From: Enterobacteria phage KhF1
DNA length: 64,000 nt
Strand: one strand, 5' to 3'
Sequence record: KT184313.1
The position numbers and the translations under genes were made by a program. Positions 1,042 to 47,005 of the stretch are shown piece by piece (the stretch's first letter is position 1; every line of letters begins with the position of its first letter). The notes under the pieces were generated by a model. The model was not told the origin of the DNA. It was given only the letters and a program-made list of their open reading frames with translations, and made no database searches.

Positions 1042-2989
1042 TTAATACAGGTGGAATCGTTGAGCTTTGACGTTGTTCTTCAGTATAGACTTCACCAGTC
1101 TCACGGTCAAACACTTCATCCTCATAATGAGGCAAAGAGTCATCATAATGGTCTTCAGCTTCACCAATACCAAACTGTTGACGAATATTTTCTGCTGCGC
1201 CATCAATGTCAACACCACATCCAGAAGCTTTAATAAGACGTCCTGTATCTGGATTATACCAAGTATGACCAGCAATACCTGTTGACTTACCATGACGACG
1301 ACACTTAGTTAACTTGATTTTTGTCAAGTTTTTCTTAACTGGGTCTGGGTCAACCTTGTTACGCATTAACAGAATGTTATTCATAGAAATCTGAAAATAC
1401 GCACCAGAACCTTTGATATCCTCTTCAGAGATATCTCCACCTTCAGAGTTAGCTTTCTGACCACCTGCACTCTTACGAACGTGACATACGTTTACCTGCG
1501 CATACTGGTAGCGTTTGCAACGACGCAATAGCTCAGACAAAACTTCTTCTTCATCCGTATCAGAACGTGACAGGGCTAACGTGATAGGGTCAAGAATGAT
1601 AATCTTACAGTCTAAACTGTTAACAAGATAGTCAACAAACTCTAGCAGGTTATCTTGGTCAATTGCCCCTTGATGGTCAACGATATGGATACGACGGCCT
1701 TTAGATAGTTCTGCGTGTGCTCCTTTTAATTCATCCCAATCCCGTTCATCATAAGGAATCTCAGAAATCTGCTTGCTCAGGTGGATTGCACAGAGCATCT
1801 CCATCAACTCTTCATAGGTATCTTCTACAGGAATTACACCGATATTATAATCAGTTTCTTTCCAAGCTGAGTAAATCATCTCACGAGTGTAAGCTGACTT
1901 ACCTACTGAAGATGGTGCTGCAATAGTTGTAATCTCACCTAAACCGTAACCACCATAAGTCAGCCTGTTCAAATCTCCGAAAGATTCTGGGAAAGGAATC
2001 AATGGAATCTGACCACGATTCTTCATTGCCTCAAAACCATCTGCGAAGTTCTTGATACCAGCAGGGCAGTAACGGGGTGCATTGTAGATACGCTGCTTAA
2101 ATCCTTCCAGAACTGTATCTTTTTCTTTATAGAACTTTGTCCACCATTCGTTAAGGTCTTTTACACCTTCTGGATACTGGAATAAACGAACCTTCTCAAT
2201 AGGTAGGATACCAGCAGCCTCTTTAGTGGCTTTAGCACCTGCTTCATCGTTATCAAAGCACAAGTAAATCTCATCAAATGATGTAATGTACTGATAGTTA
2301 TCCTTGATAGACTTGATGTTTGCACCTGATGGAACAGATACGTGACAGTAATTCTTACGACGAGATTTGTCCTTAATCGCAAGAGAAGTCATATAGATTG
2401 CTGTCGCACATTCCATCTCACCTTCCCAGATGAATAGACGGTTACCACCTTCTGGAGCAATCCATGAACCGAACATTGCCAGTTCACCTTTAATGTCTCC
2501 AACACCACCAGAAAAGTCTTTTAACTTACCTCGTAGGTGCTCTTTTGGATGGTCTTCTGGGTAACGGTGACGAACACGATATCCAACATGCTCTAGCTTG
2601 CCATCTTCATTGCGTTTGTAAGTTGGGTAGAAATGCGCGTCAATTTCACCATCACTGTCAATGTCAACCTTGATACCCAAACGCTCAAGAACTTTTGCAG
2701 GAATCTTCCTGTCTTTCAAGTCCATCGCTTCAAGGTTTTCTTTCACATCGTCTAAATCCATTCCACGGAAAGTACGGTTTTTATTGTCTGAACCAGTAGA
2801 ATAAGTGCTCACGATTTGTCCTTTATCAAAATCCCACTCTGGGAAACCTTTGTTACAACTAAAGCAAGTCATTGAATAAGAACCATCGTCATGATGATAG
2901 ATTGAACCAGCATCTGATGAACCACAACGTGGACATGCGCAATGACCAACAAACTGACCAGCCTCTTTCAATTTACGACCTTTAGACAT
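1004..2989 (-). CDS. DNA primase/helicase (T7 gp4-like: zinc-binding domain, Toprim, DnaB-like helicase)
   Basis: N-terminal CPRCGSS...CFSCNKGF zinc ribbon; Toprim motif FDNDEAG; Walker A APSSVGKSAY; start set to ATG at 2989 with GAGGTG SD. Confidence 0.85.
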   Translation of the reverse strand: MSKGRKLKEAGQFVGHCACPRCGSSDAGSIYHHDDGSYSMTCFSCNKGFPEWDFDKGQIVSTYSTGSDNKNRTFRGMDLDDVKENLEAMDLKDRKIPAKVLERLGIKVDIDSDGEIDAHFYPTYKRNEDGKLEHVGYRVRHRYPEDHPKEHLRGKLKDFSGGVGDIKGELAMFGSWIAPEGGNRLFIWEGEMECATAIYMTSLAIKDKSRRKNYCHVSVPSGANIKSIKDNYQYITSFDEIYLCFDNDEAGAKATKEAAGILPIEKVRLFQYPEGVKDLNEWWTKFYKEKDTVLEGFKQRIYNAPRYCPAGIKNFADGFEAMKNRGQIPLIPFPESFGDLNRLTYGGYGLGEITTIAAPSSVGKSAYTREMIYSAWKETDYNIGVIPVEDTYEELMEMLCAIHLSKQISEIPYDERDWDELKGAHAELSKGRRIHIVDHQGAIDQDNLLEFVDYLVNSLDCKIIILDPITLALSRSDTDEEEVLSELLRRCKRYQYAQVNVCHVRKSAGGQKANSEGGDISEEDIKGSGAYFQISMNNILLMRNKVDPDPVKKNLTKIKLTKCRRHGKSTGIAGHTWYNPDTGRLIKASGCGVDIDGAAENIRQQFGIGEAEDHYDDSLPHYEDEVFDRETGEVYTEEQRQSSTIPPVLSEDADDCPFETE

Positions 2990-3182
2990 TAGCACCTCTT
3001 CGTTGTAGTTCTTCCTTCAATCCATTTTCAATCTTGTCCAGTTCATGAATTTCATCTGCAATCTCTTTCCTTCGTGATTCAACTCTCTTAAGACGTTCAA
3101 TCATTACCTCATTGGAAAGAGATGAGAGTTCCACTAAACGGTGGTCAATAACTTTAAAATTGTCTTTTACTCTCATCTTCAT
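2982..3182 (-). CDS. hypothetical small coiled-coil protein
   Basis: ORF track; charged, helical-looking sequence; compact operon spacing. Confidence 0.4.
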   Translation of the reverse strand: MKMRVKDNFKVIDHRLVELSSLSNEVMIERLKRVESRRKEIADEIHELDKIENGLKEELQRRGANV

Positions 3183-3190
3183 TCTCTCTT

Positions 3191-3934
3191 TTAAACTTTA
3201 ATGATGGCTCTTAGCTTGTTCTCAAGGTCTGCAAGAGTACCATTATTATGAATAATGTCACGCTCATATTTTGTAGAAATCCCATTTTCTGAAACATGTG
3301 ATGAAACTTTGTCCACATTGTCTCTTTTTACTTCAATAGTTTGGTGTGCAAATCTACTCAGCCATTCAGCTTCAGAGTCAAATCTTAAATCACTGATTAA
3401 GACAAAACCATATTGGTTTCTAAGTGAGCACATTTCATGGAATCTAACCATTCTTTTTTCAAGGTCTTTAGACCAGAACTTGTCGCCCATTACTTTACGG
3501 ACAACTTCAGTACCCCAAACCTGTTGAATTTGTCTTGATGAGAATTTATACTTTTTACTAAACCCCAGACGTGTTAATAGGGTAGGTTTAGCAACCTTCT
3601 TAAGTTCCATGATTAAGCGTCCTGTCAATTCTGACATAAGTTTAAAGTCCATATGGTAACGTTCATCTCTGAAGGTGAACTCCATAGCTTCCGTAACTTT
3701 AAACATCAGTTCAGAGTATGATAAGTCAAAAACCTGTGGAGTCTCTTTAGTTTCACCGTACAGGTCATTCCAAGTCAAGTCAAATATCTTTGATGCAGAT
3801 AGTTTAAGGTTGTCTGCAAAGGCCATTACAGCAACATTGTAGCCATACTCATCCTCTAAGATGTTCTTCACAATAGAACATGAGGTGTCTTTTCCAGAAC
3901 GTGCCTTTCCAGTAAATGCGATAATATTACTCAT
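3191..3934 (-). CDS. P-loop kinase, putative deoxynucleoside monophosphate kinase
   Basis: N-terminal Walker A AFTGKARSGKDT; strong SD AAGGGAGA before ATG; location in nucleotide-metabolism context. Confidence 0.55.
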   Translation of the reverse strand: MSNIIAFTGKARSGKDTSCSIVKNILEDEYGYNVAVMAFADNLKLSASKIFDLTWNDLYGETKETPQVFDLSYSELMFKVTEAMEFTFRDERYHMDFKLMSELTGRLIMELKKVAKPTLLTRLGFSKKYKFSSRQIQQVWGTEVVRKVMGDKFWSKDLEKRMVRFHEMCSLRNQYGFVLISDLRFDSEAEWLSRFAHQTIEVKRDNVDKVSSHVSENGISTKYERDIIHNNGTLADLENKLRAIIKV

Positions 3935-3995: not shown

Positions 3996-4796
3996 TTAGT
4001 GCAGTTGCTCAGCAGACTCTTTTTCAGCCATAGCTGAGATTTGCTTCACAAAATCATCACCGAAGTTAATGCGTAGTTTCTCTTCAATGATTGAAGCACC
4101 AATATTCACCAAAACATCATTGATTGCTTGCATACTAACGCCACCAGTCATTTCCTCAATGAACTCAATACTCACACCCATCATCTGTGACAGTTGGATT
4201 AGTGCAACGATATTCATCATCGTAGAGATAGCTGGAATCATCAGTGCAACTTTCACCTGAAGTGGTTCAATGTCAGCTACAGAGTCATTTTCAACAGCTT
4301 CTTCCAAAGACTCTTTAGTTTGCTGGATAATCTCTTTGATTCGTGGGTTTAATTCTTCTACGCCCCAATCAAGTTTTTCATATCGTGAAAGTTTCTCTTC
4401 CATACGCTTCTCAAGAACAGCCATAACAGCACTCGTTGATGAGATAAGCGTATCAATAATGAAATCAGTGTCCTTAGTCAGCAACAGTTCCTTATCTTCG
4501 TCTGACATCCTGATATAGTCATTCTTTTGCATTTCATAAAAAATGAACTCAGCAAGTGCATCAACACCAACCGCAATAGATGCCAGAGCAAGTGTAGTGT
4601 CTGTTAACATCATGTTGACCTGTTCTGCAAAAGCACCGTTATCAGACTTGTCTTCAGGCAAGTTATAGCTTGCAGGCATAAACTGTTCTGTGTAGTTGTT
4701 ACCACGAAGAATCATAGCCATGCTTTCTACGGCATTGATTAAAAATGCTTCGTCAATACCTTTTTCTTCAAGCATCTTTTCTACATCGGTATTCAT
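3996..4796 (-). CDS. hypothetical acidic protein
   Basis: ORF track, 266 aa, Asp/Glu-rich; rho-independent terminator downstream. Confidence 0.5.
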   Translation of the reverse strand: MNTDVEKMLEEKGIDEAFLINAVESMAMILRGNNYTEQFMPASYNLPEDKSDNGAFAEQVNMMLTDTTLALASIAVGVDALAEFIFYEMQKNDYIRMSDEDKELLLTKDTDFIIDTLISSTSAVMAVLEKRMEEKLSRYEKLDWGVEELNPRIKEIIQQTKESLEEAVENDSVADIEPLQVKVALMIPAISTMMNIVALIQLSQMMGVSIEFIEEMTGGVSMQAINDVLVNIGASIIEEKLRINFGDDFVKQISAMAEKESAEQLH

Positions 4797-4797
4797 A

Positions 4798-5220
4798 TTA
4801 TTTCTCTCTCAGTTGGTTAAGTTTCTTTCTAGAACATTTTAAGTTTTCGGATGAAGAAAAGTCAAGTGTCTTTTCAGAACGTGGATAATAGTGTCTATCC
4901 CAAGAAGTTTCAACATCGTTAATCAGTGACGCTAGATTACACAGGTCTGTACCACTTTGCAATCTCTTTTTAAGAGAATCTAGTAAAGCAACTGTGTCTT
5001 TAGCTTTACGTCTCGCTGTAGCAACATCTTTCATATGCTCAAATACAGAGCATTTTAAGTCATCTTCATAGTTTTCAGACAACTCTATTTCATGTTGTAT
5101 ATCAACCATTCTCCTGTGATGGTGAGCATATTCCCGTTGAGCAGCAATGTCAAGTTCTTCCAACTTCTGCAAAGCTCTAACAAAGTCAGCTATGTCTGGG
5201 TGAACAAACATTTTCTGCAT
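4798..5220 (-). CDS. hypothetical protein
   Basis: ORF track, 140 aa; first gene of minus-strand operon diverging from the polymerase gene. Confidence 0.5.
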   Translation of the reverse strand: MQKMFVHPDIADFVRALQKLEELDIAAQREYAHHHRRMVDIQHEIELSENYEDDLKCSVFEHMKDVATARRKAKDTVALLDSLKKRLQSGTDLCNLASLINDVETSWDRHYYPRSEKTLDFSSSENLKCSRKKLNQLREK

Positions 5221-14020: not shown

Positions 14021-14536
14021 ATGATTGATATCTACTTACAAGATGCTCATGCAGATTTCCTTAAAGAAATGCTTAAAAAGTTTATGGCTTCACAGTATGA
14101 GAATGAAGCATCTTTTAAAATAGTTACATGTGGCGACGAAGCTGGTTTTGTTGAGATTGAACATGAAGGTACTGGAAAGACTGTTTGTAAGCTACCTGAT
14201 AGCATGTTCTCTAAAACGTTCTTAACAAAGACTAGTATAAATGTTAAGCTTGTTCCTCAGATTGAAACATACTCTGGTACAGGTTACCCTAAAGGCTTCA
14301 AGTCACTGATGAAACACTTCTTAGATGACTTTGTGAGTAATCTTCTAAGTGAGGTAACAGAAAGCCGTACAATATTAACTGTAGAGAATATAGGGAACAC
14401 TATCAGGGTTACTTCTGACCGATATTCTATGAGCCTCTTCGACTTTGTACCTAAGAACTTTGATGGTATTCTGGATGAAGAAGATGTCTGTGTAGACTTT
14501 ATATTGGTTCTTGAACCAGTTTTTGAGGTTAAATAG
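14021..14536 (+). CDS. hypothetical protein
   Basis: ORF track. Confidence 0.45.
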   Translation: MIDIYLQDAHADFLKEMLKKFMASQYENEASFKIVTCGDEAGFVEIEHEGTGKTVCKLPDSMFSKTFLTKTSINVKLVPQIETYSGTGYPKGFKSLMKHFLDDFVSNLLSEVTESRTILTVENIGNTIRVTSDRYSMSLFDFVPKNFDGILDEEDVCVDFILVLEPVFEVK

Positions 14537-14797
14537 ATGAAAATTGAACACTGCTATGAGTCTGATGGGACACCTATCCGATGTCCACATTGTGGGTGTA
14601 CAGACTTACAAGGTGAAGTTCATGTGATTGTTAATGGTCATATAGCTGAAGAAAGTACTACATGTGTTGGTTGTGGTGAGCATCTATCATTCTGGGCTTA
14701 TGGTTCATACCAACCTACACCACACCTAATATACCATAGCAATAAAGCCGTGAAGAATGTTATCAACTGGTTCATTAAGAAAGGATTTACAAAATGA
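14537..14797 (+). CDS. zinc-ribbon protein
   Basis: CPHCGC...CVGCGEH paired cysteine motifs. Confidence 0.45.
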   Translation: MKIEHCYESDGTPIRCPHCGCTDLQGEVHVIVNGHIAEESTTCVGCGEHLSFWAYGSYQPTPHLIYHSNKAVKNVINWFIKKGFTK

Positions 14798-15339
14798 TTA
14801 AATTAATCTTTGCAAGTGGTGAAAATGGGGAGTTTGGTACTCCAACTGGTATGCCGTGGCCTCGACATAAACAGGACATGCAAGAGTTTAAGAGACTCAC
14901 TAAAAATAACTTAGTAGTCATGGGTAATGAGACTTTTAAGACTCTGGGTAGTAAACCTTTACCAGAACGTGCAAACCTCATCTTAACAAATTCTGTACCA
15001 TACTTAGGTATAGACTTTGGCAAAGATGATGTAATGTATGCTAAAGCCAGTAAAGAGTCATTTGGAGCATTTTTGAAGTATCTTGATAGCTCTATTGATG
15101 AAGATGTCTTTGTAATTGGTGGTGCAGGTGTCCTTGTCAATGCTTTACCGTATGCTGGTGTGGTGTTCCATACAGTCTTCCATAAAGTTACTGAAGAGGC
15201 CACTGTGCATTTACCTTTTGAAAACTTCTTTGAGAAGCTGTATGATAACCGTGTATTTACAAAGGTACAGTCAAAACCATCAGAGGATGGTAAAGCAACC
15301 TTTGAAATTTATGTTCCACAAGTAAAAGGACACTTTTGA
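14794..15339 (+). CDS. frd: dihydrofolate reductase
   Basis: DHFR signatures IFASGENGEFG..MPW and VVMGNETFKTLG; directly upstream of thymidylate synthase. Confidence 0.8.
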   Translation: MIKLIFASGENGEFGTPTGMPWPRHKQDMQEFKRLTKNNLVVMGNETFKTLGSKPLPERANLILTNSVPYLGIDFGKDDVMYAKASKESFGAFLKYLDSSIDEDVFVIGGAGVLVNALPYAGVVFHTVFHKVTEEATVHLPFENFFEKLYDNRVFTKVQSKPSEDGKATFEIYVPQVKGHF

Positions 15340-15340
15340 T

Positions 15341-16240
15341 ATGTCACAAGCAGATTCAAGTTATAAAAATATCCTGAACCATGTTTTATCAGTCGGTGAA
15401 CTGCGTACTACACGAACTGGAGATGTTATCTCTGCATTCGCTCCACCTCAGTTTCGTTTTGATATGAGGACTGGTTTTCCACTATTGACATCTAAACAGG
15501 TGTTTACACGGCAAGTTATTGGGGAAGCTTTATGGTTCCTGAACGGTGAGAATAAGCTTGGTGAACTCCGTTACCGTACTTGGGGTGAAAATGATGGAGA
15601 ACGCTGGACTATCTGGTCTGATGATTTTAAGCGCTGGTTAAGCTCTAATTATTCTTCTGAACAAGATTGGTTAGAAGATGCAGGTGGAAGAATCTATGGG
15701 GTTCAGTGGAGAAACTTTGAAGGTCATAATGGTTGTGTTGTAGACCAGTTAGAAACCCTAGTAACAAAGATGAAAGGTGATATCACAGACCGTTACATGC
15801 TTGTTAATGCTTGGAATGCAGCAGATATTGCAGCAAACTCAATGGCTTTAGCACCTTGTCATGTCCTGTTTCAGATTTATATTACTAATGAAGGTGAAGT
15901 AGATTTGCAATGGTATCAGCGTTCTGTAGACACCTTTTTAGGACTTCCGTTTAACATTGCGTCTTATGGTTTTATTCTGGAAGTTCTTTGCAAGATGACT
16001 GGATATACTCCACGATACTTGATAGGTGTCTTTGGAGATACCCAGATTTATCAGAATCATATGAAGCAGGTTTATGAACTGATGAACAATGAAGAGTTTC
16101 ATGCACCTACTTTTGAGATTGGTATACCACTTAATAATTTAAGTGACTTAAAACATCTTACTGCAAGCGACTTTATTGGTGGCATTAACAACTACCAACA
16201 TGCAGGGAAGATTGAAGCACCTCTGTCAGTAGGCAAGTAA
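15341..16240 (+). CDS. thyA: thymidylate synthase
   Basis: Active-site region LAPCHVLFQIY and overall ThyA-like length. Confidence 0.85.
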   Translation: MSQADSSYKNILNHVLSVGELRTTRTGDVISAFAPPQFRFDMRTGFPLLTSKQVFTRQVIGEALWFLNGENKLGELRYRTWGENDGERWTIWSDDFKRWLSSNYSSEQDWLEDAGGRIYGVQWRNFEGHNGCVVDQLETLVTKMKGDITDRYMLVNAWNAADIAANSMALAPCHVLFQIYITNEGEVDLQWYQRSVDTFLGLPFNIASYGFILEVLCKMTGYTPRYLIGVFGDTQIYQNHMKQVYELMNNEEFHAPTFEIGIPLNNLSDLKHLTASDFIGGINNYQHAGKIEAPLSVGK

Positions 16241-40267: not shown

Positions 40268-40343
40268 TGGAGAATCCGAAGGGACTCGAACCCTTATAAA
40301 CCTGTTTTGCAGACAGGCACATAGCCATTTCTGTCACGGATTC
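40268..40343 (-). tRNA. tRNA-Cys (anticodon GCA)
   Basis: Acceptor GAATCCG/CGGATTC, T-arm AAGGG-TTCGAGT-CCCTT, anticodon loop CTGCAAA, CCA encoded. Confidence 0.7.
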
Positions 40344-40347
40344 AAAT

Positions 40348-40440
40348 TGGAGGAAGATACCAGACTTGAACTGGTACACCGATTTCTCAGCTACTGGCAG
40401 TTTAGCAAACTGCTCCCTTACCTTTTAGGGTTAATCTTCC
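40348..40440 (-). tRNA. tRNA-Ser (anticodon GCT), long variable arm
   Basis: T-arm ACCAG-TTCAAGT-CTGGT, anticodon loop TTGCTAA, about 90 nt. Confidence 0.6.
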
Positions 40441-40441
40441 A

Positions 40442-41176
40442 TTATTTCTGTAATGCGTTCTTCATTTCTGGTGTTGCAATAGTGTCAATCACACCAGTTT
40501 TACAAGCATCATCAAACCAGTCTGGTAAGATACCTGCTAAGAACCCATTGATATTCGTTTTAAGGTACTCTGCAATAAGGGCAGCTTCTTCTTCAATCAT
40601 CTGCACAACTTCATCTGCATAAGCTGTAATCTTTGAGATACCTTCATTAATCTTACTGACAGCTTGGTTAGCTAAATCAGAAACAGTATCAAGACCCTTA
40701 TCAATAGCATCTTGTAAGTCACTTAACACACCATTAACACTATCTAGTGTACTGTTCATCATGTCAATAGCTTTTTGACCATACTCTGTAGCAACACCCA
40801 TAATACCACTGAATGGTGTACAACCAACTTGTTCTCCTGCTGCACCCATAACATTGGAGTATCCCTTTGCTACCTGCATACGTGATGAAAACTCATCAAT
40901 AGACTTTTGACCGTAGTCTGTTAGGGTCTTAGTAGTTGCTGTAGTGCTTGTAAGGCTTGTTGTAAAGCTGTTTAGAAGGACTGTTGTAAGTCCAGCAGCA
41001 ACAAGTTTCTCCTTCATTGTAGGGTCTGTTACAGAGCTAATAGAGCTTACAAGTGATGTAGAAGCAGCTACGGTTCCACCGAGAACTGCTGCACCAGTAA
41101 TAAGTGGGTTAGAGAACCCTTTACCGGTTTTTAAGAGATTAAAAATCTCCTTACCTTGTTCTGTCATCTCTTTCAT
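40442..41176 (-). CDS. hypothetical Ala/Thr/Ser-rich protein inside tRNA cluster
   Basis: ORF track; start moved to internal ATG at 41176 because the annotated start would overlap tRNA-Phe. Confidence 0.45.
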   Translation of the reverse strand: MKEMTEQGKEIFNLLKTGKGFSNPLITGAAVLGGTVAASTSLVSSISSVTDPTMKEKLVAAGLTTVLLNSFTTSLTSTTATTKTLTDYGQKSIDEFSSRMQVAKGYSNVMGAAGEQVGCTPFSGIMGVATEYGQKAIDMMNSTLDSVNGVLSDLQDAIDKGLDTVSDLANQAVSKINEGISKITAYADEVVQMIEEEAALIAEYLKTNINGFLAGILPDWFDDACKTGVIDTIATPEMKNALQK

Positions 41177-41192
41177 TAAGCACCTTTGAAAT

Positions 41193-41269
41193 TGGTAGTC
41201 CAGTGGGATTTGAACCCTCTTCTCATGTTTTTCAGACACGCGCTTTAACCATATAAGCTACTTGGACTA
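41193..41269 (-). tRNA. tRNA-Phe (anticodon GAA)
   Basis: Acceptor pairing, GGGTTCAAATCCC T-arm, anticodon loop CTGAAAA. Confidence 0.6.
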
Positions 41270-41274
41270 TAAAT

Positions 41275-41350
41275 TGGGGTGACCTACGGGATTTGAACCC
41301 GTATAGACCATGTTCACAGCATGGGTCATTACCATTTATGATAAGGCCAC
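41275..41350 (-). tRNA. tRNA-His (anticodon GTG)
   Basis: Acceptor GTGGCCT/AGGTCAC, anticodon stem CCATG/CATGG, loop CTGTGAA. Confidence 0.7.
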
Positions 41351-41381
41351 ATTTAAGGACTCTCGTAAGAATCCTTAGAAG

Positions 41382-41457
41382 TGGCAGCGGCATAAGGATT
41401 TGAACCTTAATAGGACAGCTTCAGAGACTGTTGCATTGCCAGTTATGCTATACCGCT
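41382..41457 (-). tRNA. tRNA-Gln (anticodon CTG)
   Basis: Acceptor AGCGGTA/TGCCGCT, T-loop TTCAAAT, anticodon loop CTCTGAA. Confidence 0.6.
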
Positions 41458-41462
41458 AAATT

Positions 41463-41534
41463 TGGTACTCCATATCGGATTCGAACCGATACATAACACA
41501 GATTTTAAGTCTGGCCTCTCTGCCAATTGGAGTA
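41463..41534 (-). tRNA. tRNA, short and atypical, isotype undetermined (anticodon possibly TAA)
   Basis: Acceptor ACTCCAA/TGGAGT, T-arm ATCGG-TTCGAAT-CCGAT; anticodon arm does not parse cleanly. Confidence 0.45.
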
Positions 41535-41543
41535 ATGGAGCAT

Positions 41544-41618
41544 TGGCGGGGGATGTTGGAATTGAACCAACTTCTTCGATTTCAAAGACCGAGGTTTTAA
41601 CCTTGTAAACTAATCCCC
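41544..41618 (-). tRNA. tRNA-Gln (anticodon TTG), tentative
   Basis: T-arm GTTGG-TTCAATT-CCAAC, anticodon loop CTTTGAA; acceptor pairing imperfect. Confidence 0.5.
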
Positions 41619-41627
41619 TTTAAATCT

Positions 41628-42185
41628 TTACTTTCTCAGTGGATGAATAAAGAATGCCAACATAACTCTTTCCCTTGAGAATGCTCTTTCTTCTGGGACA
41701 ACACTTTTTAGTTTCCATCCAATATAAATTCTCCAGTAAAACTGTTTACCAAAGACTTTAATTGATGGGATAAAGGCGAATAATCCCCAAGCATTACTGT
41801 TCCACATTAGGAGATAACCAGTCTGATTATCTTCAGGGTCAGAACTTACGTTGATATTACCTTTCCACTTAGTAACATCTTTTACATCTCTTCCTAATAC
41901 ATGGTAAGAGAAGTTATAAGCTTTGTTTCTCCAGAGCCATCCGACTCTTTGCATGTAGACGCCTAGTTTACCAATCCATCTAATATTAGCCCATCTTTTA
42001 ACGTGACCTTCATCACCATCAATTGGGTTGTCATATGTCTCCATCCATCTGAACCCGAAAGGTAAGTGTCCTTTCTTCTCACTGTAGAATGGAACTACAA
42101 AAGGTGCTAAGATAACTGCTAAGATTGCTGCAAATGGCTCTAACAAAGCTAAGAAAATCCATGAAACATATTTTAAGTATCTCAT
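41628..42185 (-). CDS. integral membrane protein
   Basis: N-terminal hydrophobic helices WIFLALLEPFAAILAVILAPFVVPF; Trp-rich. Confidence 0.5.
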   Translation of the reverse strand: MRYLKYVSWIFLALLEPFAAILAVILAPFVVPFYSEKKGHLPFGFRWMETYDNPIDGDEGHVKRWANIRWIGKLGVYMQRVGWLWRNKAYNFSYHVLGRDVKDVTKWKGNINVSSDPEDNQTGYLLMWNSNAWGLFAFIPSIKVFGKQFYWRIYIGWKLKSVVPEERAFSRERVMLAFFIHPLRK

Positions 42186-42424
42186 TGTCTAACCCTCGTA
42201 AGGAGGTAAGCATTATTATTTGTTTCTGAGCTTTCTGGTAACATTGTCTCAAAATTGACGCTTTTAAGTTGTCTTCCACCAAAGCAATGACCAATAAATC
42301 TTTCTACTTTTATTGGGTCGCATTCCCATCCGACTTTCAAGAAAATGTGGGTATCTATAGTGGGAACCCTTACAAACTCAATACTATTGGGATTTTCATG
42401 TTCAACGACGATTAATGTTTGCAT
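42182..42424 (-). CDS. hypothetical protein
   Basis: ORF track; ATGA overlap with downstream membrane-protein gene. Confidence 0.45.
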   Translation of the reverse strand: MQTLIVVEHENPNSIEFVRVPTIDTHIFLKVGWECDPIKVERFIGHCFGGRQLKSVNFETMLPESSETNNNAYLLTRVRQ

Positions 42425-42441
42425 AAATTCCTCTTGCTTAT

Positions 42442-42517
42442 CTGGCGCAGGATAAGGGATTCGAACCCCTATTAACAGCTTCGTAGACTGTTGCTCTATC
42501 CATTTGAACTAATCCTG
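42442..42517 (-). tRNA. tRNA-Arg (anticodon ACG)
   Basis: Acceptor GCAGGAT/ATCCTGC, T-arm GGGGTTCGAATCCC, anticodon loop CTACGAA. Confidence 0.7.
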
Positions 42518-42522
42518 CAAAA

Positions 42523-42600
42523 TTGGTGTTCCAAGACGGATTCGAACCGTCACTAGTACAAGGTTTGAGCTTGCATCCTCTGCCAATTGGGATACTGGAA
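42523..42600 (-). tRNA. tRNA with anticodon CAA (Leu-type anticodon on a short-variable-arm body)
   Basis: Acceptor GTTCCAG/TTGGAAC, T-arm GACGG-TTCGAAT-CCGTC, anticodon loop CTCAAAC. Confidence 0.5.
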
Positions 42601-42601
42601 C

Positions 42602-42677
42602 ATGGTACTCACTAAAGGACTTGAACCTTTTTCTTCATCTTGTAAGGGTGATGTTTTACCATATAAACTAAGCGAGT
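42602..42677 (-). tRNA. tRNA-Val (anticodon TAC)
   Basis: Acceptor TACTCGC/GTGAGTA, T-loop TTCAAGT, anticodon loop CTTACAA. Confidence 0.55.
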
Positions 42678-42681
42678 ATGA

Positions 42682-42768
42682 AAGAGGTCTGGAGTTGTGC
42701 CGCTAACTCAACTCCGTGGAATTTGTTACGGTCTTCAGTTGACTCAAAGCGGTCTTTCACTTGACCTC
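42682..42768 (-). ncRNA. tRNA-sized structured element, not a canonical tRNA
   Basis: 7-bp terminal pairing AGAGGTC/GACCTCT encloses a 7-bp hairpin GGAGTTG/CAACTCC; no TTCGA T-loop. Confidence 0.35.
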
Positions 42769-42772
42769 TGAA

Positions 42773-42848
42773 TTGGTGCTCCCACAAGGATTCGAACCCT
42801 GATAAGTTGCTTACAAGGCAACCGTAATAGCCAATTATACGATAGGAG
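42773..42848 (-). tRNA. tRNA-Thr (anticodon TGT)
   Basis: Acceptor GCTCCTA/TGGGAGC, anticodon stem GTTGC/GCAAC, loop CTTGTAA. Confidence 0.7.
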
Positions 42849-42855
42849 CATTAAT

Positions 42856-42931
42856 TTGGAGCATCCAGAGGGAATCGAACCCTCAACCTCAGTTTGGAAG
42901 ACTGTAATTTTCCCGTTTAAACTATGGATGC
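42856..42931 (-). tRNA. tRNA-Gly (anticodon TCC)
   Basis: Acceptor GCATCCA/TGGATGC, T-loop TTCGATT, anticodon loop CTTCCAA. Confidence 0.65.
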
Positions 42932-42936
42932 ACTAA

Positions 42937-43012
42937 TTGGTGGAGTCACTGAGAATTGAACTCAGTTCCCAAGTTTGCAAAACTCGAATTTTAACCATAT
43001 AAACTATGACCC
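42937..43012 (-). tRNA. tRNA-Ala (anticodon TGC)
   Basis: Acceptor GGGGTCA/TGACTCC (G3-T70 wobble), anticodon loop TTTGCAA. Confidence 0.65.
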
Positions 43013-43018
43013 CAATGT

Positions 43019-43095
43019 TTGGTACAGGTGGAGGGAATTGAACCCATCGTCTTACTGATTAAGAGTCAGCCGCATAACCATTTTGCTACACCTGC
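43019..43095 (-). tRNA. tRNA-Lys (anticodon CTT)
   Basis: Acceptor GCAGGTG/CACCTGT, anticodon stem GCTGA/TCAGT, loop CTCTTAA. Confidence 0.55.
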
Positions 43096-43101
43096 ATTAA
43101 T

Positions 43102-43180
43102 TTGGTGGGAGACAAGGGATTCGAACCCTCAAACACCAACTTCTAAGGATGGTAGGTTTACCAATTACCGTCAATCTCCC
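43102..43180 (-). tRNA. tRNA with anticodon TAG (Leu-type anticodon on a short-variable-arm body), tentative
   Basis: Acceptor GGGAGAT/GTCTCCC, T-arm GAGGG-TTCGAAT-CCCTT, anticodon loop CTTAGAA. Confidence 0.45.
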
Positions 43181-43438
43181 ATTAAATCTTTTTAGAGAAC
43201 TTCTAAGAACCTAAGCAACAAGGTTCCACAACAAGCTGTAATAACCTTAGAAGCCCTCTAAAAAGACCTAAAAAGGTCTTTGCATAGTCTTGTTTAATCC
43301 GGTGACTAGAACCTTTGGAGAGCTTGATATTATCTCTTCTCCGTGACACCTACTAGGTGCTTTACTGTGCGTGTACGACAATACACGAGGGATACCAAAG
43401 CAACATCCGAATGAAGCTTGGCTTTAAAATCTTATTAG

Positions 43439-43526
43439 GCGGTAAGTAAAGGAGTCGAACCCTCACCGTATCTCTACAGTGGCAACAGTTTTCAAGACTG
43501 TTTGGCTGCCATTAGCCGCTACCTAC
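43439..43526 (-). tRNA. tRNA-Ser (anticodon TGA), long variable arm
   Basis: Acceptor GGTAGGT/ACTTACC, anticodon stem ACAGT/ACTGT, loop CTTGAAA, about 88 nt. Confidence 0.6.
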
Positions 43527-43539
43527 CCCTAATAAGACT

Positions 43540-43622
43540 TTGGCATGGGACGGAGGAGTTGAACCCCTTTGAAACGGTTTTGGAGGCCGTTGCTCATGCC
43601 TTAGAGTCTTAACATCGTCCCA
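43540..43622 (-). tRNA. tRNA, atypical; possibly tRNA-Trp (anticodon CCA) with extended D region
   Basis: Acceptor GTGGGAC/GTCCCAT, T-loop TTCAACT, candidate anticodon loop CTCCAAA; about 8 extra nt in D region. Confidence 0.45.
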
Positions 43623-43774
43623 CACTATAATTCGAAGCTTACCCTATTATCTCAACACTGTAAAGCCCCTTCTCAGATTATTTACATGTTCTGGAAAACA
43701 TGAGATACAGACCACCTCCCTACAGGAAGACCCGCTTAGGTCGTATAAGTAATCTGCTAACTATTTGGCACACC

Positions 43775-43842
43775 CTACAGGATTCGAACCTGTAACTAAC
43801 GATTTAGAAGACCGTTGCTCTATCCAATTGAACTAAGGGTGC
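43775..43842 (-). tRNA. tRNA-Arg (anticodon TCT)
   Basis: Acceptor GCACCCT/AGGGTGT, T-arm ACAGG-TTCGAAT-CCTGT, anticodon loop CTTCTAA. Confidence 0.65.
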
Positions 43843-44088
43843 ATTAATCTTTAAAGACTCTCTTAGAAAGCCCTTAAAGATGCCCACCTTATTAATCATA
43901 CCGTGGGCGAGTACGCCAAATTCTTTGATGAGGGATTGGAAGACCTCACTGGTGTTTAGCCTATCAAGCTACTGCCAGAAAAACATTGTCGTTTGCATTT
44001 ATTTTAAATTTGCAAAATAGACGCTACGCAACGAAAACTAAGGTTACTATAAAGTGGTCACATCTCAATGTCAACAACTTTATTGAAA

Positions 44089-44164
44089 TTGGTACTGGTA
44101 GGTGGAATCGAACCACCGATGTTCCCTTATCAGGGGAGTGTTATAACCTTCTTAACTATACCAG
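44089..44164 (-). tRNA. tRNA-Ile (anticodon GAT)
   Basis: Acceptor GCTGGTA/TACCAGT, T-arm GGTGG-TTCGATT-CCACC, anticodon loop CTGATAA. Confidence 0.7.
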
Positions 44165-44165
44165 C

Positions 44166-44243
44166 TTGGAGGTTCAGATGGGAATCGAACCCACATTCAT
44201 AGGGCTTATGAGACCCTTGCATTACCTTATCTGCGACTGAACC
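44166..44243 (-). tRNA. tRNA-Met (anticodon CAT), copy 1
   Basis: Acceptor GGTTCAG/CTGAACC, anticodon stem AGGGT/GCCCT, loop CTCATAA. Confidence 0.65.
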
Positions 44244-44246
44244 ATT

Positions 44247-44322
44247 TTGGTAGAAGTGGAGGGATTCGAACCCATCGCCTGTCAGATTAAAAGTCTGCCG
44301 CATCACCATTCTGCTACACTTC
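44247..44322 (-). tRNA. tRNA-Lys (anticodon TTT)
   Basis: Acceptor GGAAGTG/CACTTCT, T-loop TTCGAAT, anticodon loop CTTTTAA. Confidence 0.6.
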
Positions 44323-44325
44323 CAT

Positions 44326-44469
44326 TAAATTATCTTTGTAGATAAGCTACCCAGACTTGCTTAAGGTCTGTAGCGATGTGCCTTGTTGGGTTTAAATCTA
44401 GAATTTACCCTTTCACCCTTTGTGGTCGCATACTCACAGGTAAGCTTAATAACTTATCTACAAAGATAA
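44326..44469. repeat. 19-bp perfect inverted repeat pair (AATTATCTTTGTAGATAAG) enclosing about 106 nt
   Basis: Arms at about 44326-44344 and 44451-44469 are exact reverse complements. Confidence 0.6.
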
Positions 44470-44470
44470 T

Positions 44471-44602
44471 TACCAGACCGTTGTTTATCATCTTAAGTGC
44501 TACCATTACACCAACTCGACATCTGCCGAGTGAAGGAATCGAACCTTCGCCTTTTCTTTACCGAGAAATAGATTGTTTAAGTTTTGCTGTAAACGGTCTT
44601 CT
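44471..44602 (-). ncRNA. tRNA-like domain in permuted (Y RNA-like / YrlA-like) arrangement inside a long closing stem
   Basis: On minus strand: T-arm GAAGG-TTCGATT-CCTTC, acceptor-like 7-bp helix ACTCGGC/GTCGAGT capped by a 4-nt loop, D-arm GTGT-AATGGTA-GCAC, CTTAA/TTAAG helix, outer stem AGACCGTT/AACGGTCT. Confidence 0.45.
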
Positions 44603-44615
44603 GTAAATTTGTTGA

Positions 44616-44691
44616 GCCAGACCAAGTTTTAAATTTTTCAAAATTAAATTGGCTTGAAATTTTCATACGTTCTTGCTGTATTTGGTCTTCT
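44616..44691 (-). repeat. spacer hairpin element, family member 2 (CCAGACCAA ... TTGGTCTTCTG)
   Basis: Same conserved arms and TTGCTGTA block as 44471..44602 but AT-rich interior. Confidence 0.5.
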
Positions 44692-44752
44692 GCTCCTTTA
44701 AAGGATACTCGTAAGAACCCTTTAAGGGAGGGGCTAAATAGCCCTCTCAAAA

Positions 44753-44829
44753 TTGGCGGCTACGATGAGACTTGAACTCACATCATCTCCCGTGACAGGG
44801 GAGTATTTTCTCCAGTTAAACTACATAGC
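44753..44829 (-). tRNA. tRNA-Asp (anticodon GTC)
   Basis: Acceptor GGCTATG/CGTAGCC, T-loop TTCAAGT, anticodon stem CTCCC/GGGAG, loop CTGTCAC. Confidence 0.7.
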
Positions 44830-44834
44830 CTTTA

Positions 44835-44922
44835 TTGGTGTGCCGTGTAGGAGTCGAACCTACCGAGTCTCAATGACAAGGGATTTACAGTCCCCACCGC
44901 TACCATCTACGGGATAACGACA
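44835..44922 (-). tRNA. tRNA-Tyr (anticodon GTA), long variable arm
   Basis: Acceptor GTGTCGT/ACGGCAC, T-arm GTAGG-TTCGACT-CCTAC, anticodon loop CTGTAAA. Confidence 0.65.
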
Positions 44923-44930
44923 CATTTAAT

Positions 44931-45007
44931 TTGGCGGTTAGTCAGGGATTCGAACCCTGTGCCATTCGCTTAACAGGCGACCGCACATACCTTATGTGCT
45001 TCCTAAC
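44931..45007 (-). tRNA. tRNA-Asn (anticodon GTT)
   Basis: T-arm CAGGG-TTCGAAT-CCCTG, anticodon loop CTGTTAA. Confidence 0.65.
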
Positions 45008-45020
45008 CATGTTTAGTATT

Positions 45021-45085
45021 ACCAGACCGTATATTTCAATTTTTTCCGCTAAAAATTTAATAAATATTGCTGTAAACGGTCTTCT
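45021..45085 (-). repeat. spacer hairpin element, family member 3 (CCAGACCGT ... AACGGTCTTCTG)
   Basis: Conserved arms and TTGCTGTAAACGGTCTTCTGTAAA block. Confidence 0.5.
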
Positions 45086-45091
45086 GTAAAT

Positions 45092-45167
45092 TTGGAGGCG
45101 GGTGCAGGAGTCGAACCTGCCGATACCATGCTAATGAGACATGTGAGACGCCCTTTCTCTATACCCG
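45092..45167 (-). tRNA. tRNA with anticodon CAT, copy 2 (initiator, elongator Met or Ile2 undetermined)
   Basis: T-arm GCAGG-TTCGACT-CCTGC, anticodon stem CATGT/GCATG, loop CTCATTA. Confidence 0.6.
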
Positions 45168-45179
45168 CAATTCTTAATG

Positions 45180-45251
45180 ACCAGACCAAATATCTTCTTT
45201 GTCCGATTAACTTTCAGATGAGTAGATTAAGTTTGCTGTAATTGGTCTTCT
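45180..45251 (-). repeat. spacer hairpin element, family member 4 (CCAGACCAA ... TTGGTCTTCTG)
   Basis: Conserved arms and TTGCTGTAATTGGTCTTCTG block. Confidence 0.5.
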
Positions 45252-45258
45252 GTCAAAA

Positions 45259-45336
45259 CTGGCGTTCCAGAAGGGATTTGAACCCTCAAATATCCACTTT
45301 GAAAGAGTGGTGACTTTACCATTTTGTCTACTGGAA
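45259..45336 (-). tRNA. tRNA-Glu (anticodon TTC)
   Basis: Acceptor GTTCCAG/CTGGAAC, anticodon stem CCACT/AGTGG, loop CTTTCAA. Confidence 0.7.
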
Positions 45337-45343
45337 CATTAAT

Positions 45344-45423
45344 TTGGTCTCCGTTGAAGGATTTGAACCCTCGACCCCTTGCTCCCAAAGCAAGTGCTGC
45401 TAAACCAAACTGAGCTAAACGGA
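45344..45423 (-). tRNA. tRNA-Pro (anticodon TGG)
   Basis: Acceptor CTCCGTT/AACGGAG, anticodon stem CTTGC/GCAAG, loop TTTGGGA. Confidence 0.7.
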
Positions 45424-45542
45424 GATAAACTTTTCAAACTCTATGTAACCACTTTAACATTATTTTTTAGTGATTGTCAAGAACTTTTTTAAAATATTTT
45501 TCAGTATCTTAGAAAAGCTCTCATTTCGTTTCTATGTAGAAC

Positions 45543-45571
45543 ATATTAAAGGGTATTAAACACATTGTCAA
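45543..45571 (-). promoter_or_regulatory. sigma70-like promoter reading into the tRNA cluster (TTGACA, 17 nt, TAATAT)
   Basis: Reverse complement reads GGTA-TTGACA-atgtgtttaataccctt-TAATAT; sits inside inverted repeat GGGTATT...AATACCC. Confidence 0.6.
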
Positions 45572-45589
45572 TACCCTTTTTAAAACTTT

Positions 45590-47005
45590 TTACCAGATAT
45601 AACGGTCAATCATTACTGCTTTGAGCATTACACTGATTGGGTCAAACTTCTCACCACCAAGCAGAGCTTTTAAAGTGGCTGGAGAGAACCCTGATACCAT
45701 TGCTACACCGTTATCCTTAACAGATACTTCGCAAGTACCATTACGGTTTGCTAAGTACCAGAATACCAGTTGTGGCATCTCATATCCAGCTTTTTTGTAC
45801 TTACTCTGAATTGCTTCAAAGTTTGTACGTCCGTTAGCTCCATCAACCTGATTGAACTCCATATCGGAGAAGATGATAAGCTTACTTGGCATATCTTTCT
45901 GAGTCAAGTTGTTTCTTTTACCTGTTTCAAGAATGCGGTCAAAAGCTGCTTGTAAGTTAGTTGAGCCATATTCAACGTGTCGCATCACCTGACGATGACG
46001 GTTTCGTAAATCACCACTCAATTCGATGAAATGAGGGTTTGTTGAATAAACCATTAACTCGTTCTTAAAGCAACCTGTATTGCGTTCTGCTACATACAAG
46101 GCAAGGGATACACCAATATCAAGGGCAGTGATTGAACCAAGATTCACCCAAGACATTGAGCTTGAAACATCAGTCATACACAGGATGTTTTCACCTTCTG
46201 CCATCCAGTTTGGTAGTGCTTTCCACTGCTCATTAGCAACATCTGCATTACCATACTTGATAGATTTAATCACATCGTATGGATAAACAGCACCAGCATT
46301 AATCTTAGTCTCGCCCTTTGATAAGGACTCAATGTAAGATTTGTAGCGTTCTCCATCTTTACGGTTAAAGAGTTTTTGGTAACGTGCAGCAGCAAGTGAA
46401 GGAATCTTACTGTAGTCGATATTACCAAACTCATTAGCAGAGATTTTTTGTTCAACTGTATCAGATAGTGCAGACAGCAGTGTGCGGTACTCTTTCTCAC
46501 TCAAGTTTGCAAACTTGCAGAAACGTTTTACAAACTGTTTGTGACGTGGTTTTACTCGTGGTAACCACTTAGCTGCTAAACCTGCTGTTGCAGGGTCTAG
46601 TAATGCTGCTTCTAAATGTTTGAAGGCATCTGTCTCGAAACGAGTACCTACAAAGATTTTGAAGTCATCAAAGCGACCAAGCTCTGCAATCTTATCCATA
46701 ATGCGAAGAACCTGCGTAGGTTCTAAAACTTTATCTTCAATCGCTTGAAGTAAAACAGTTCGGAAAGCTTTACGCTCACCCATACCTTCTCGTACATCTC
46801 GCATATGCAGTAAAATACGAACTGCAACATCAACATCCTCATGCAAAGCTTTGTATAACAAGTCTGGTAAGATTTCTACATTGCTACGGCTGGAACCAGC
46901 AGCTTTGTAAAAGTCCACAAGAGCAGACATTGATGAAGTATGGTTTACAGCACCATTTTCAGTTCGACCTGCATGAAGGTGCGCATGTTTAAATAATTCG
47001 CTCAT
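45590..47005 (-). CDS. von Willebrand factor A (MIDAS) domain protein with N-terminal helical domain
   Basis: MIDAS-like DVSSSM (DxSxS) at about residue 275 and downstream IIFSDMEF; N-terminal 270 aa unassigned. Confidence 0.65.
   Translation of the reverse strand: MSELFKHAHLHAGRTENGAVNHTSSMSALVDFYKAAGSSRSNVEILPDLLYKALHEDVDVAVRILLHMRDVREGMGERKAFRTVLLQAIEDKVLEPTQVLRIMDKIAELGRFDDFKIFVGTRFETDAFKHLEAALLDPATAGLAAKWLPRVKPRHKQFVKRFCKFANLSEKEYRTLLSALSDTVEQKISANEFGNIDYSKIPSLAAARYQKLFNRKDGERYKSYIESLSKGETKINAGAVYPYDVIKSIKYGNADVANEQWKALPNWMAEGENILCMTDVSSSMSWVNLGSITALDIGVSLALYVAERNTGCFKNELMVYSTNPHFIELSGDLRNRHRQVMRHVEYGSTNLQAAFDRILETGKRNNLTQKDMPSKLIIFSDMEFNQVDGANGRTNFEAIQSKYKKAGYEMPQLVFWYLANRNGTCEVSVKDNGVAMVSGFSPATLKALLGGEKFDPISVMLKAVMIDRYIW

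Follow-up and report, generated by a model that had tools for sequence, protein, structure and literature searches.

What fills the spaces between the transfer RNA (tRNA) genes of Enterobacteria phage KhF1 is the question raised by the stretch of 64,000 nucleotides (nt) analysed here (KT184313.1; the whole stretch is referred to as the window). A sequence-only reading of the window had proposed that two non-coding gaps of about 250 nt in its tRNA cluster, here called gap A and gap C, may hold small stable RNAs. This idea was largely right, without the identity of the RNAs having been recognised. Gap C harbours an RNA gene that is conserved and structured, has a promoter of its own and maintains a reading frame of the transfer-messenger RNA (tmRNA) type. 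Its RNA belongs to an extensive, unannotated family of phage RNAs with kinship to the coding piece of two-piece tmRNAs. With somewhat more confidence than doubt, we read both gaps as structured RNAs on the tRNA strand, the one of gap C being a relative of the tmRNA coding piece that would act on host trans-translation, with its tag most likely decoded.

The tRNA cluster and its gaps

The window belongs to a Felix O1-like myovirus; in a sequence search, its region 43100-44400 retrieved 282 phage records, chiefly of Felixounavirus, and showed 98.6% identity to Escherichia phage HY02. The cluster comprises 26 tRNA genes on the minus strand, spanning 40268-45424 according to ARAGORN and to Rfam at gathering score, and Rfam at that score reports only tRNAs over it. 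Seven segments are left without tRNA:

42678-42773, non-tRNA gap
43181-43437, gap A (257 nt)
43528-43765, gap B
43843-44089, gap C (247 nt)
44324-44753, non-tRNA gap
45009-45092, non-tRNA gap
45170-45259, non-tRNA gap

The absence of tRNAs from gaps A and C was borne out, since ARAGORN and Rfam at gathering score leave both empty, and no Rfam family reaches its threshold in any gap of the cluster. Matches to microRNA and plastid families of Rfam were rejected as artefacts of hairpins or of antisense tRNA. The span originally proposed, 43190-44088, does not consist of gaps alone, as tRNA-Ser, tRNA-Arg and the third gap, gap B, fall inside it.

The absence of credible open reading frames (ORFs) was equally upheld, the longest ones inside gaps A and C having at most 48 amino acids and none being conserved. 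ORFs as such are present, namely a 46-amino-acid one on the plus strand of gap C (43880-44020) and, in gap A, minus-strand ORFs of 37-48 amino acids or the 'ORF46' of Felix O1, and some GenBank records annotate a 'hypothetical protein' there. Nevertheless, the ORF of gap C is broken in most relatives, with a longest open run of 19-29 of ~42 codons, 'ORF46' starts within tRNA-Ser and is frame-shifted and split between two frames in the window, and indels of 1 nt disrupt the minus-strand ORFs of gap A. We therefore give hardly any credence to the explanation that the gaps encode small proteins.

A tmRNA-like RNA in gap C

Read on the minus strand, gap C folds at -58.6 kcal/mol (z = -3.8), and none of 200 dinucleotide shuffles folds as well. 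The following features were recognised:

44046-44074, minus strand, sigma-70 promoter of the tmRNA-like RNA: TTGACA, 17-nt spacer, TATAGT, 11 of 12 matches
43843-44041, minus strand, tmRNA-like small RNA (transcript or precursor segment), from the match to model R1 and the fold (z = -3.8)
44031-44039, minus strand, 5' motif AGUUUUCGU, nearly invariant in 44 family members
43961-43996, minus strand, tag reading frame: GCA AAC GAC AAU GUU UUU CUG GCA GUA GCU UGA UAG
43949-43978, minus strand, helix-5-like stem with the stop codon in its loop: CUGG/CCAG enclosing UAGC/GCUA
43916-43948, minus strand, H-type pseudoknot: stem 1 UGAGG/CCUCA, stem 2 between loop CCAA and downstream UUGG
43882-43908, minus strand, terminal hairpin GCCCAC/GUGGGC with conserved loop GGUAUGAUUAAUAAG, from covariation
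43847-43881, minus strand, 3' hairpin AUCUUUAA.../...UUAAAGAU of the minimum-free-energy fold, stopping just before tRNA-Arg
43992-44016, without assigned strand, hairpin of the sequence-only reading (hairpin 2): TTTGCA at 43992-43997, TGCAAA at 44011-44016

The promoter is the best site found by a promoter scan within 42400-45700 and sits directly upstream of the D-loop-like 5' motif; equivalent promoters, TTGACA...TAGATT and TTGACA...TAATCT, were read in the upstream sequences of other lineages at the same place. The RNA, of ~160-200 nt, would have its 5' end at ~44039 and its 3' end at the RNase P site of tRNA-Arg (43842/43843). By eye, the 5' motif AGUUUUCGU resembles the D-loop segment GGAUUCGAC / GGUUUCGAC in the coding pieces of two-piece phage tmRNAs called by ARAGORN, and it can likewise be likened to UUCGAC...GAUUUGCG of the E. 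coli tmRNA (ssrA). Homology between AGUUUUCGU and the tmRNA D-loop segment is suggested by this resemblance, which is not a scored one.

Downstream of the motif, AUAAAU precedes the GCA codon that opens a frame of 10 codons followed by two stops. The predicted tag is ANDNVFLAVA, for which ANDENYALAA of E. coli tmRNA can serve as comparison, and the tag region agrees with the permuted-tmRNA consensus of Rfam, UAAaUGCaAACGAuAAcguUu. Gap C in this way combines traits of tmRNA: a start-less tag frame, preceded by an A-rich stretch, that resumes with an Ala codon and ends in a stop, and a helix 5 that presents the stop codon and is followed by a pseudoknot.

These elements are kept by compensatory change among relatives. 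The outer stem of the helix-5-like element is paired in 84-97% with compensatory G-C to A-U changes, while the inner one has a variable register and is paired in 63%. In the pseudoknot, stem 1 is paired in 97%, with changes on both sides in three of its five pairs, and stem 2 in 95%, with such changes in all four (CCGA/UCGG, CCAA/UUGG, CCAG/CUGG, GUCG/CGAC). The terminal hairpin is paired in 87%, again with both-side changes in all four pairs, and presents at least eight stem sequences around a nearly invariant loop (GUGAUUAAUAA). The 3' hairpin is replaced in relatives by a longer cassette, AAAGAGCAU...AGUGCUCUUU. In the 5' leader of the RNA, no consistent covarying pairing and no equivalent of pseudoknot 1 (PK1) of tmRNA were found by eye.

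Family members and their distribution

A sensitive BLAST search with the minus strand of gap C matched 627 phage records, reaching beyond the relatives of Felix O1. A block corresponding to ~44005-43881 is 70-82% identical in Ackermannviridae, N4-like Schitoviridae, Erwinia Ounavirinae and a lambdoid Enterobacter phage, as well as in siphoviruses of 45-50 kb infecting Klebsiella, Acinetobacter and Aeromonas. None of the examined records annotates the element as RNA; it falls either into unannotated DNA or into short 'hypothetical protein' annotations. It is often found near tRNA genes, on the same strand.

The relationship was confirmed with a covariance model, R1, built only from members outside Ounavirinae (Ackermannviridae, Schitoviridae, lambdoid, P1-like and others). 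In the window it finds a single copy at 43881-44010, with 113.4 bits (E=2e-29) and over model positions 1-131 of 131. In an alignment of 62 matches based on R1, 87% of the cells are paired and 14 of 17 pairs are compensatory, with pairing of 97% in the outer stem of helix 5, 97% in stem 1 of the pseudoknot and 87% in the terminal hairpin, and compensatory changes in all three. A plain MAFFT alignment gave 92% paired cells and 11 compensatory pairs out of 14, compared with 32-54% pairing in slid controls.

The coding frame was compared in 44 family members, which represent 27 distinct nucleotide versions and 17 peptides. The tag frame has exactly 10 codons and a stop in all 44, while the other two frames vary. 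All 17 peptides fit AN[DE]....[AV]A, the last codon being GCN with all four third bases in use; the stop switches among UAA, UGA and UAG, and the middle codons vary freely.

Taken together with the promoter, these data bear on the explanation that a two-piece tmRNA lost its acceptor piece and that the element is its decaying remainder. The element does resemble the coding piece of real phage two-piece tmRNAs and has no acceptor piece, but its presence in 627 records of unrelated phage families, its compensatory changes, its intact frame and its own promoter leave decay only a very slight probability.

The element is also carried by 691 of 5,426 E. coli genomes, where it occupies 591 plasmid and 150 chromosomal places. 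P1-like plasmids and lambdoid prophages, in the latter downstream of Q, account for most of these. In the P1-like plasmid examined, it lies between dmt and tRNA-Asn, and in the chromosomal copy examined, within a lambdoid prophage, it comes directly after Q and the promoter and terminator of Q. As the matches do not occur in every E. coli genome, the search does not detect ssrA itself. A copy of the host ssrA or a phage attachment-site fragment was rejected as the origin, since only these 691 genomes were matched and the phages are mostly virulent.

The surroundings of the element in other phages were inspected as well. At ten loci outside the Felix group (L007, L012, L013, L021, L027, L029, L072, L074, L085 and L099), it stands within arrays of RNA cassettes extending 100-600 nt to either side. 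One cassette type has a conserved long stem, CACAACAGGUAAGAGCAUU.../...AGUGCUCUUUCCGUUGUG, with variable inserts, some of them with T arms, and a second type reads GUGGUGAAUGCGCAGGCUGAUGCGC...GCCGGAGAUCAGCACCGGCCACCAC. A small version of the first type follows the element in Mooglevirus and Felix O1. In the N4-like Escherichia phage EC1-UPM (L012), ~2 kb (1317-3280) have neither an annotated gene nor an ARAGORN tRNA, and several T-arm-like hairpins (e.g. at 2420-2440, 2545-2565, 2675-2695 and 2745-2765) occur there downstream of the element.

Comparison with two-piece tmRNAs and other phage RNAs

The references for two-piece tmRNAs were Rfam RF04321 and RF01849-RF01851 and the IMG/VR contigs L023, L028, L037, L051, L105, L119 and L120. 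Viral contigs were scanned for ATAAATGCAAACGA, and among those recovered were some with permuted (two-piece) tmRNAs called by ARAGORN, whose tags include ANDSVYSLAA, ANDEKFALAA and ANDNFAPMALAA. Their layout is a promoter, an acceptor piece ending in ...CCACCA, an intervening sequence and a coding piece, the latter reading GGGG...GGAUUCGAC...AUAAAUGCAAACGA..., followed by the tag and a small pseudoknot. Model R1 detects the tag regions of these tmRNAs at 25-36 bits and, in the opposite direction, the permuted-tmRNA model of Rfam aligns the tag region of gap C.

The gap C RNA agrees with the coding piece of these molecules in several respects. Both resume in the context AUAAAU|GCA AAC GA, with a short tag beginning with AND and ending in small hydrophobic residues and a stop, and in both the stop codon is placed in a hairpin loop ahead of a small pseudoknot. 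An upstream motif like GGUUUCGAC, a sigma-70 promoter of their own and a site among phage tRNA genes are further common traits. The single pseudoknot also corresponds to small phage two-piece tmRNAs, whereas E. coli tmRNA has four. On the other hand, the gap C RNA has neither the 5' GGGG... acceptor strand nor the upstream acceptor piece with T arm and CCA, the tags of its family end in ...AVA or ...MAA instead of ...LAA, and its terminal hairpin with the conserved loop GUGAUUAAUAA is foreign to real tmRNAs.

The stable RNAs species 1 and 2 of phage T4 (rnaC and rnaD), small non-tRNA RNAs of its tRNA gene cluster, are co-transcribed and processed with the phage tRNAs, and the gap RNAs are like them in lying in a tRNA cluster, a likeness by description and not by sequence. 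We know of no tmRNA-type reading frame in the T4 species.

A partial tmRNA has been described in mycobacteriophage DS6A, consisting of little more than the tRNA-like domain (PMC4131195, PMC11915505), and a molecule similar to it strongly inhibits tmRNA, perhaps by titrating SmpB (PMC4131195). Like the DS6A RNA, the gap C RNA retains one functional half of a tmRNA and is borne by a phage, and DS6A provides a precedent for incomplete phage tmRNA derivatives that can interfere with trans-translation. The two are mirror images, the DS6A RNA having the tRNA-like domain without a tag and the gap C RNA a tag without the tRNA-like domain. The tmRNA database demands the CCA positions of the tRNA-like domain (PMC11915505), and the gap C family would therefore have been rejected there.

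A lineage-specific RNA in gap A

Gap A probably represents a folded RNA specific to the Felix O1 lineage and released from the tRNA precursor. Its minus strand folds at -73.6 kcal/mol (z = -3.4), again with none of 200 dinucleotide shuffles as good, into five hairpins and a terminal helix of ~26 bp ending at tRNA-Leu:

43181-43437, minus strand, structured non-coding RNA segment from tRNA-Ser to tRNA-Leu, from fold and conservation
43275-43360, minus strand, nearly invariant core of 86 nt (GCACCUAGUAGGUGUCACGGAGAAGAGAUAAUAUCAAGCUCUCCAAAGGUUCUAGUCACCGGAUUAAACAAGACUAUGCAAAGACC), almost all columns identical across three genera in alignment A2
43262-43281, minus strand, hairpin of the sequence-only reading (hairpin 1): AAAGACC at 43262-43268, GGTCTTT at 43275-43281
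43182-43271, minus strand, long terminal hairpin of ~26 pairs reaching the 5' edge of tRNA-Leu, from the consensus structure

Gap A was recovered, at 83-99% identity, from 253 records, all of them of Felixounavirus, Suspvirus or Mooglevirus. According to alignment A2, the hairpins flanking the core vary. The first hairpin differs in sequence but not in shape, and the terminal hairpin shows many pairing-preserving changes (G-U/A-U, C-G/U-G) and one compensatory pair (U-A to G-C, in 3 sequences), its apex being wholly replaced between genera. The core is almost invariant and thus uninformative for covariation. Neither a promoter nor a terminator was called in gap A.

The two hairpins by which the gaps had originally been characterised both exist, a few bases away from the positions first given, and neither proved to be an informative feature. 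Hairpin 1 keeps its stem through G-U changes around a varying loop (UUUUUA, UAUUUA, AGUUA, GUUUA, AAUA), while its 3' arm extends into the base of the longer conserved helix that RNAalifold prefers and with which it competes. It was also rejected as an intrinsic terminator, as the terminator scan made no call and too few U follow the stem. Hairpin 2 overlaps the resume codon: on the minus strand its 3' arm is the conserved resume-codon region UGCAAA, and it is not a conserved feature because the 5' arm is missing in the close relatives L015 and L080. As to the proposed RNAs themselves, the one in gap C is well supported by its own promoter, a family across unrelated phages and strong covariation, and the one in gap A is plausible on weaker grounds, being significantly structured, restricted to one lineage and poor in covariation.

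Both gaps could alternatively be operon punctuation only, that is, a promoter, processing stems and weak terminators from which no RNA accumulates or acts. Gap C does have a promoter, gap A is confined to one lineage, and long stems run precisely up to the following tRNA in gaps A and C as well as at 44330-44469, which suits processing signals. Such a role would, however, not account for the maintenance of the gap C element where no tRNA comes after it (in the N4-like L012 and the lambdoid L013 and L135), nor for its conserved reading frame and pseudoknot, and the conservation of the gap A core exceeds the need of any processing stem. We consider punctuation alone quite improbable.

Proposed mode of action of the gap C RNA

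In regard to the way in which the gap C RNA could act, we propose that it would be transcribed by the host RNA polymerase and that RNase P cleavage at the downstream tRNA-Arg would set its 3' end. The RNA may then engage the host trans-translation machinery, i.e., SmpB and stalled ribosomes. If its tag is decoded, rescued proteins would obtain a C-terminus specified by the phage (...LAVA, ...LMAA) in place of the ...ALAA degron of the host. Decoding of the tag appears most likely because the frame length, the stop and the Ala/Val codon patterns persist through much sequence change.

Several results weigh against this interpretation. A tmRNA call by ARAGORN is missing for the window, for 10 related loci and for the entire HY02 genome, where Rfam at gathering score likewise reports tRNAs only. 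The gap C RNA is devoid of an acceptor stem, a T arm and a CCA end, and the only canonical T arm outside tRNAs found by a T-arm scan of the 64 kb lies in an RNA module described below (M4) and not in this RNA. The Rfam scores are low, with 29.5-29.6 bits for RF04321 and 8.8-15.9 for RF00023 versus a gathering score of 47 for each, the alignment to RF04321 borrows the T arm of the upstream tRNA-Ile, and for RF01849-RF01851 the RNA also stays below the curated score. The G3:U70 alanine identity pair is absent because the RNA has no acceptor stem, and the nearby acceptor-like stem of M4 (GUCGAGU/ACUCGGC) has C3-G70. For the 5' leader, a crude unrestricted duplex scan, which is a weak negative, gave no pairing partner above shuffled controls in the window or in E. 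coli tmRNA. To our knowledge, there is no route by which a ribosome would start at GCA without an aminoacylated tRNA-like end. Codons 7-10 also take part in helices, and part of the coding pattern could reflect RNA structure. Finally, as regards gap A, almost no variation is present in its core, whose structure is a predicted one.

The main rival to tag decoding is a decoy RNA that binds SmpB, ribosomal protein S1 or RNase R and thereby shuts down host trans-translation, its tag never being decoded. In tmRNA, the D-loop/helix-2 region and the region upstream of the resume codon contact SmpB. The gap C RNA keeps a D-loop/helix-2-like 5' motif as well as the region upstream of the resume codon, and the absence of an acceptor stem, T arm and CCA end, together with the free variation of the middle tag codons, speaks for such a molecule, for which the partial tmRNA of DS6A sets the precedent (PMC4131195). 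A binding mimic, on the contrary, need not hold a frame of exactly 10 codons and a stop in 27 distinct sequences, nor switch UAA, UGA and UAG in place, nor keep Ala/Val codons with free third bases. A decoy is possible on this evidence, and we regard it as the less likely explanation.

A further-reaching proposal is that trans-translation is split or hijacked in many phage families, with a tag template devoid of a tRNA domain, the tRNA-like function supplied in trans and the host degron replaced. Such a function might come from the Ala-tmRNA and SmpB of the host or from a tRNA-like RNA of the phage, for instance M4 or, elsewhere, the T-arm cassettes that follow the element. This general scheme is speculative, and we hold it to be rather unlikely.

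A Ro60-like protein and Y-RNA-like modules

Directly upstream of the cluster, at 45590-47005 on the minus strand, the window encodes a protein of 471 amino acids with the Pfam domains DUF2828 and DUF7788, labelled 'RNA-binding protein' in Felix O1 and HY02. It has no sequence match to solved structures, and Ro60 was not detected by sequence. The 11 best PDB matches of its AlphaFold model (predicted local distance difference test score, pLDDT, 85) are all Ro60/TROVE structures, with E about 1e-7 and template modelling (TM) scores of 0.5-0.66, and include Ro60 of Thermus phage phiLo. The protein is thus predicted, on the strength of this model, to have a Ro60 (TROVE + vWA) fold.

Four RNA modules, which begin 335 nt downstream of this gene, occupy other gaps of the cluster:

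45178-45255, minus strand, module M1
45019-45089, minus strand, module M2
44614-44695, minus strand, module M3
44470-44606, minus strand, module M4
44532-44548, minus strand, T arm of M4
44525-44531 and 44514-44520, minus strand, acceptor strands of M4
44497-44512, minus strand, D arm of M4

The modules share a layout of a 4-bp outer stem, an AGA/G internal loop and an AGACC/GGUCU stem, followed by UACAGCAA, for which the 4 matches contrast with 0.01 expected. The outer stem pairs in all 47 distinct copies, in six sequence forms, and the motif is essentially confined to Felix-like contigs. M4 additionally holds a circularly permuted tRNA-like domain composed of a T arm, a 7-bp acceptor stem with a closing AGAU loop and a D arm; its acceptor stem covaries in relatives (ACUCGGC/GUCGAGU, ACCCUUC/GAAGGGU, ACACG/CGUGU). 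M1-M3 are without such a domain.

Y RNAs of the YrlA type are bound by bacterial Ro60 (PMC4201824), and Thermus phage phiLo carries Ro60 with Yrl1 and Yrl2 (PMC12135203). The four modules are like YrlA-type RNAs in standing beside a Ro60-like gene and in having a terminal stem with a conserved internal loop, and M4 also in its T arm, D arm and closed 7-bp acceptor stem (PMC4201824). They are unlike them in that the Rfam YrlA family (RF02553) gives no match to M4 at E<=10 and that the GNCGAAN0-1G motif is absent near the 5' end of the modules, the sole GGCGAAG overlapping the T stem. By analogy, M1-M4 are candidate Y-RNA-like partners of the Ro60-like protein, and M4 could be cleavable by RNase P and able to receive CCA, as is YrlA of M. 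smegmatis.

The presence of this protein at 45590-47005 also raises the possibility that the RNAs of gaps A and C themselves are its Y RNA ligands, as Y RNAs are normally encoded beside Ro60 (PMC4201824) and hairpin 1 of gap A has a stem, AGACC/GGUCU, that equals the inner-stem sequence of the four modules. Still, the tmRNA-like RNA occurs in many phages whose sampled loci are without a Ro60-like gene (lambdoid, P1-like), both gaps are without the outer-stem and AGA/G-loop architecture of the modules, and the GNCGAA motif was not found when the sequences of gaps A and C were read. Such a role for the gap RNAs seems very improbable to us.

Other elements of the cluster

Gap B holds, at 43541-43621 on the minus strand, an atypical tRNA-Trp-like element with the anticodon-loop sequence CUCCAAA, mismatched anticodon and T stems and an odd D region; it receives no ARAGORN call and 23 bits from the tRNA-Sec model of Rfam. 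It is kept in Felix O1, while typing phage 15 has a different, annotated tRNA-Trp at this place. At 43680-43740 on the same strand, gap B contains the motif GGAGGUGGUCUGUAUCUC, shared with the Erwinia Ounavirinae phage Tian (L011), where it lies downstream of the tmRNA-like element. The motif resembles a ribosome-binding site, and no conserved ORF comes after it.

A structured segment of ~149 nt at 44324-44472 (minus strand), with a near-perfect closing helix of ~24 bp (UUAUCUUUGUAGAUAAG.../...CUUAUCUACAAAGAUAA), stops just before tRNA-Lys and is conserved in Felix-like relatives, which makes it a candidate small RNA. HY02, the closest relative (locus L163; regions 4208-4903 and 14155-15850), encodes a polynucleotide kinase, an enzyme of the RNA-repair type, and has an additional 1.7-kb stretch without an annotated gene.

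In relatives, genes of HNH homing endonucleases are inserted at varying points among the tRNA genes:

Felix O1, locus L001, 1830-2243, HNH homing endonuclease insertion
Felix O1, locus L001, 3161-3553, HNH homing endonuclease insertion
Felix O1, locus L001, 4041-4526, HNH homing endonuclease insertion
locus L003, 2861-3265, HNH homing endonuclease insertion

No gene of this kind is present in the window. The gaps were rejected as remnants of such genes, since HNH proteins of Felix O1 and the typing phages gave no significant tblastn match in 42400-45600.

Significance of the tmRNA-like family

A full-text search returned no account of a tmRNA-like RNA lacking the tRNA domain for these phages, with most subscription journals lying outside the search and an earlier description being possible; in the literature covered, we could not find a description of this widespread tmRNA-derived family. 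The family keeps only the mRNA-like half of the molecule, under purifying selection, in Felix O1-like, Vi1-like, N4-like, P1-like and lambdoid phages, and the element is present in ~13% of complete E. coli genomes. It would fill unannotated gaps in hundreds of genome records.

In regard to function, the family implies either a new way of feeding a tag template to ribosomes or a widespread disabling or re-routing by phages of ribosome rescue and ClpXP-type proteolysis, and either outcome is testable in E. coli or Salmonella with existing phages such as Felix O1 and P1. If true, in-trans decoding of a tag template would represent a previously undescribed mode of trans-translation. Alongside the Ro60-like protein and its neighbouring Y-like modules, the tmRNA-like RNA indicates that the "tRNA clusters" of phages can be broader arrays of small RNAs.

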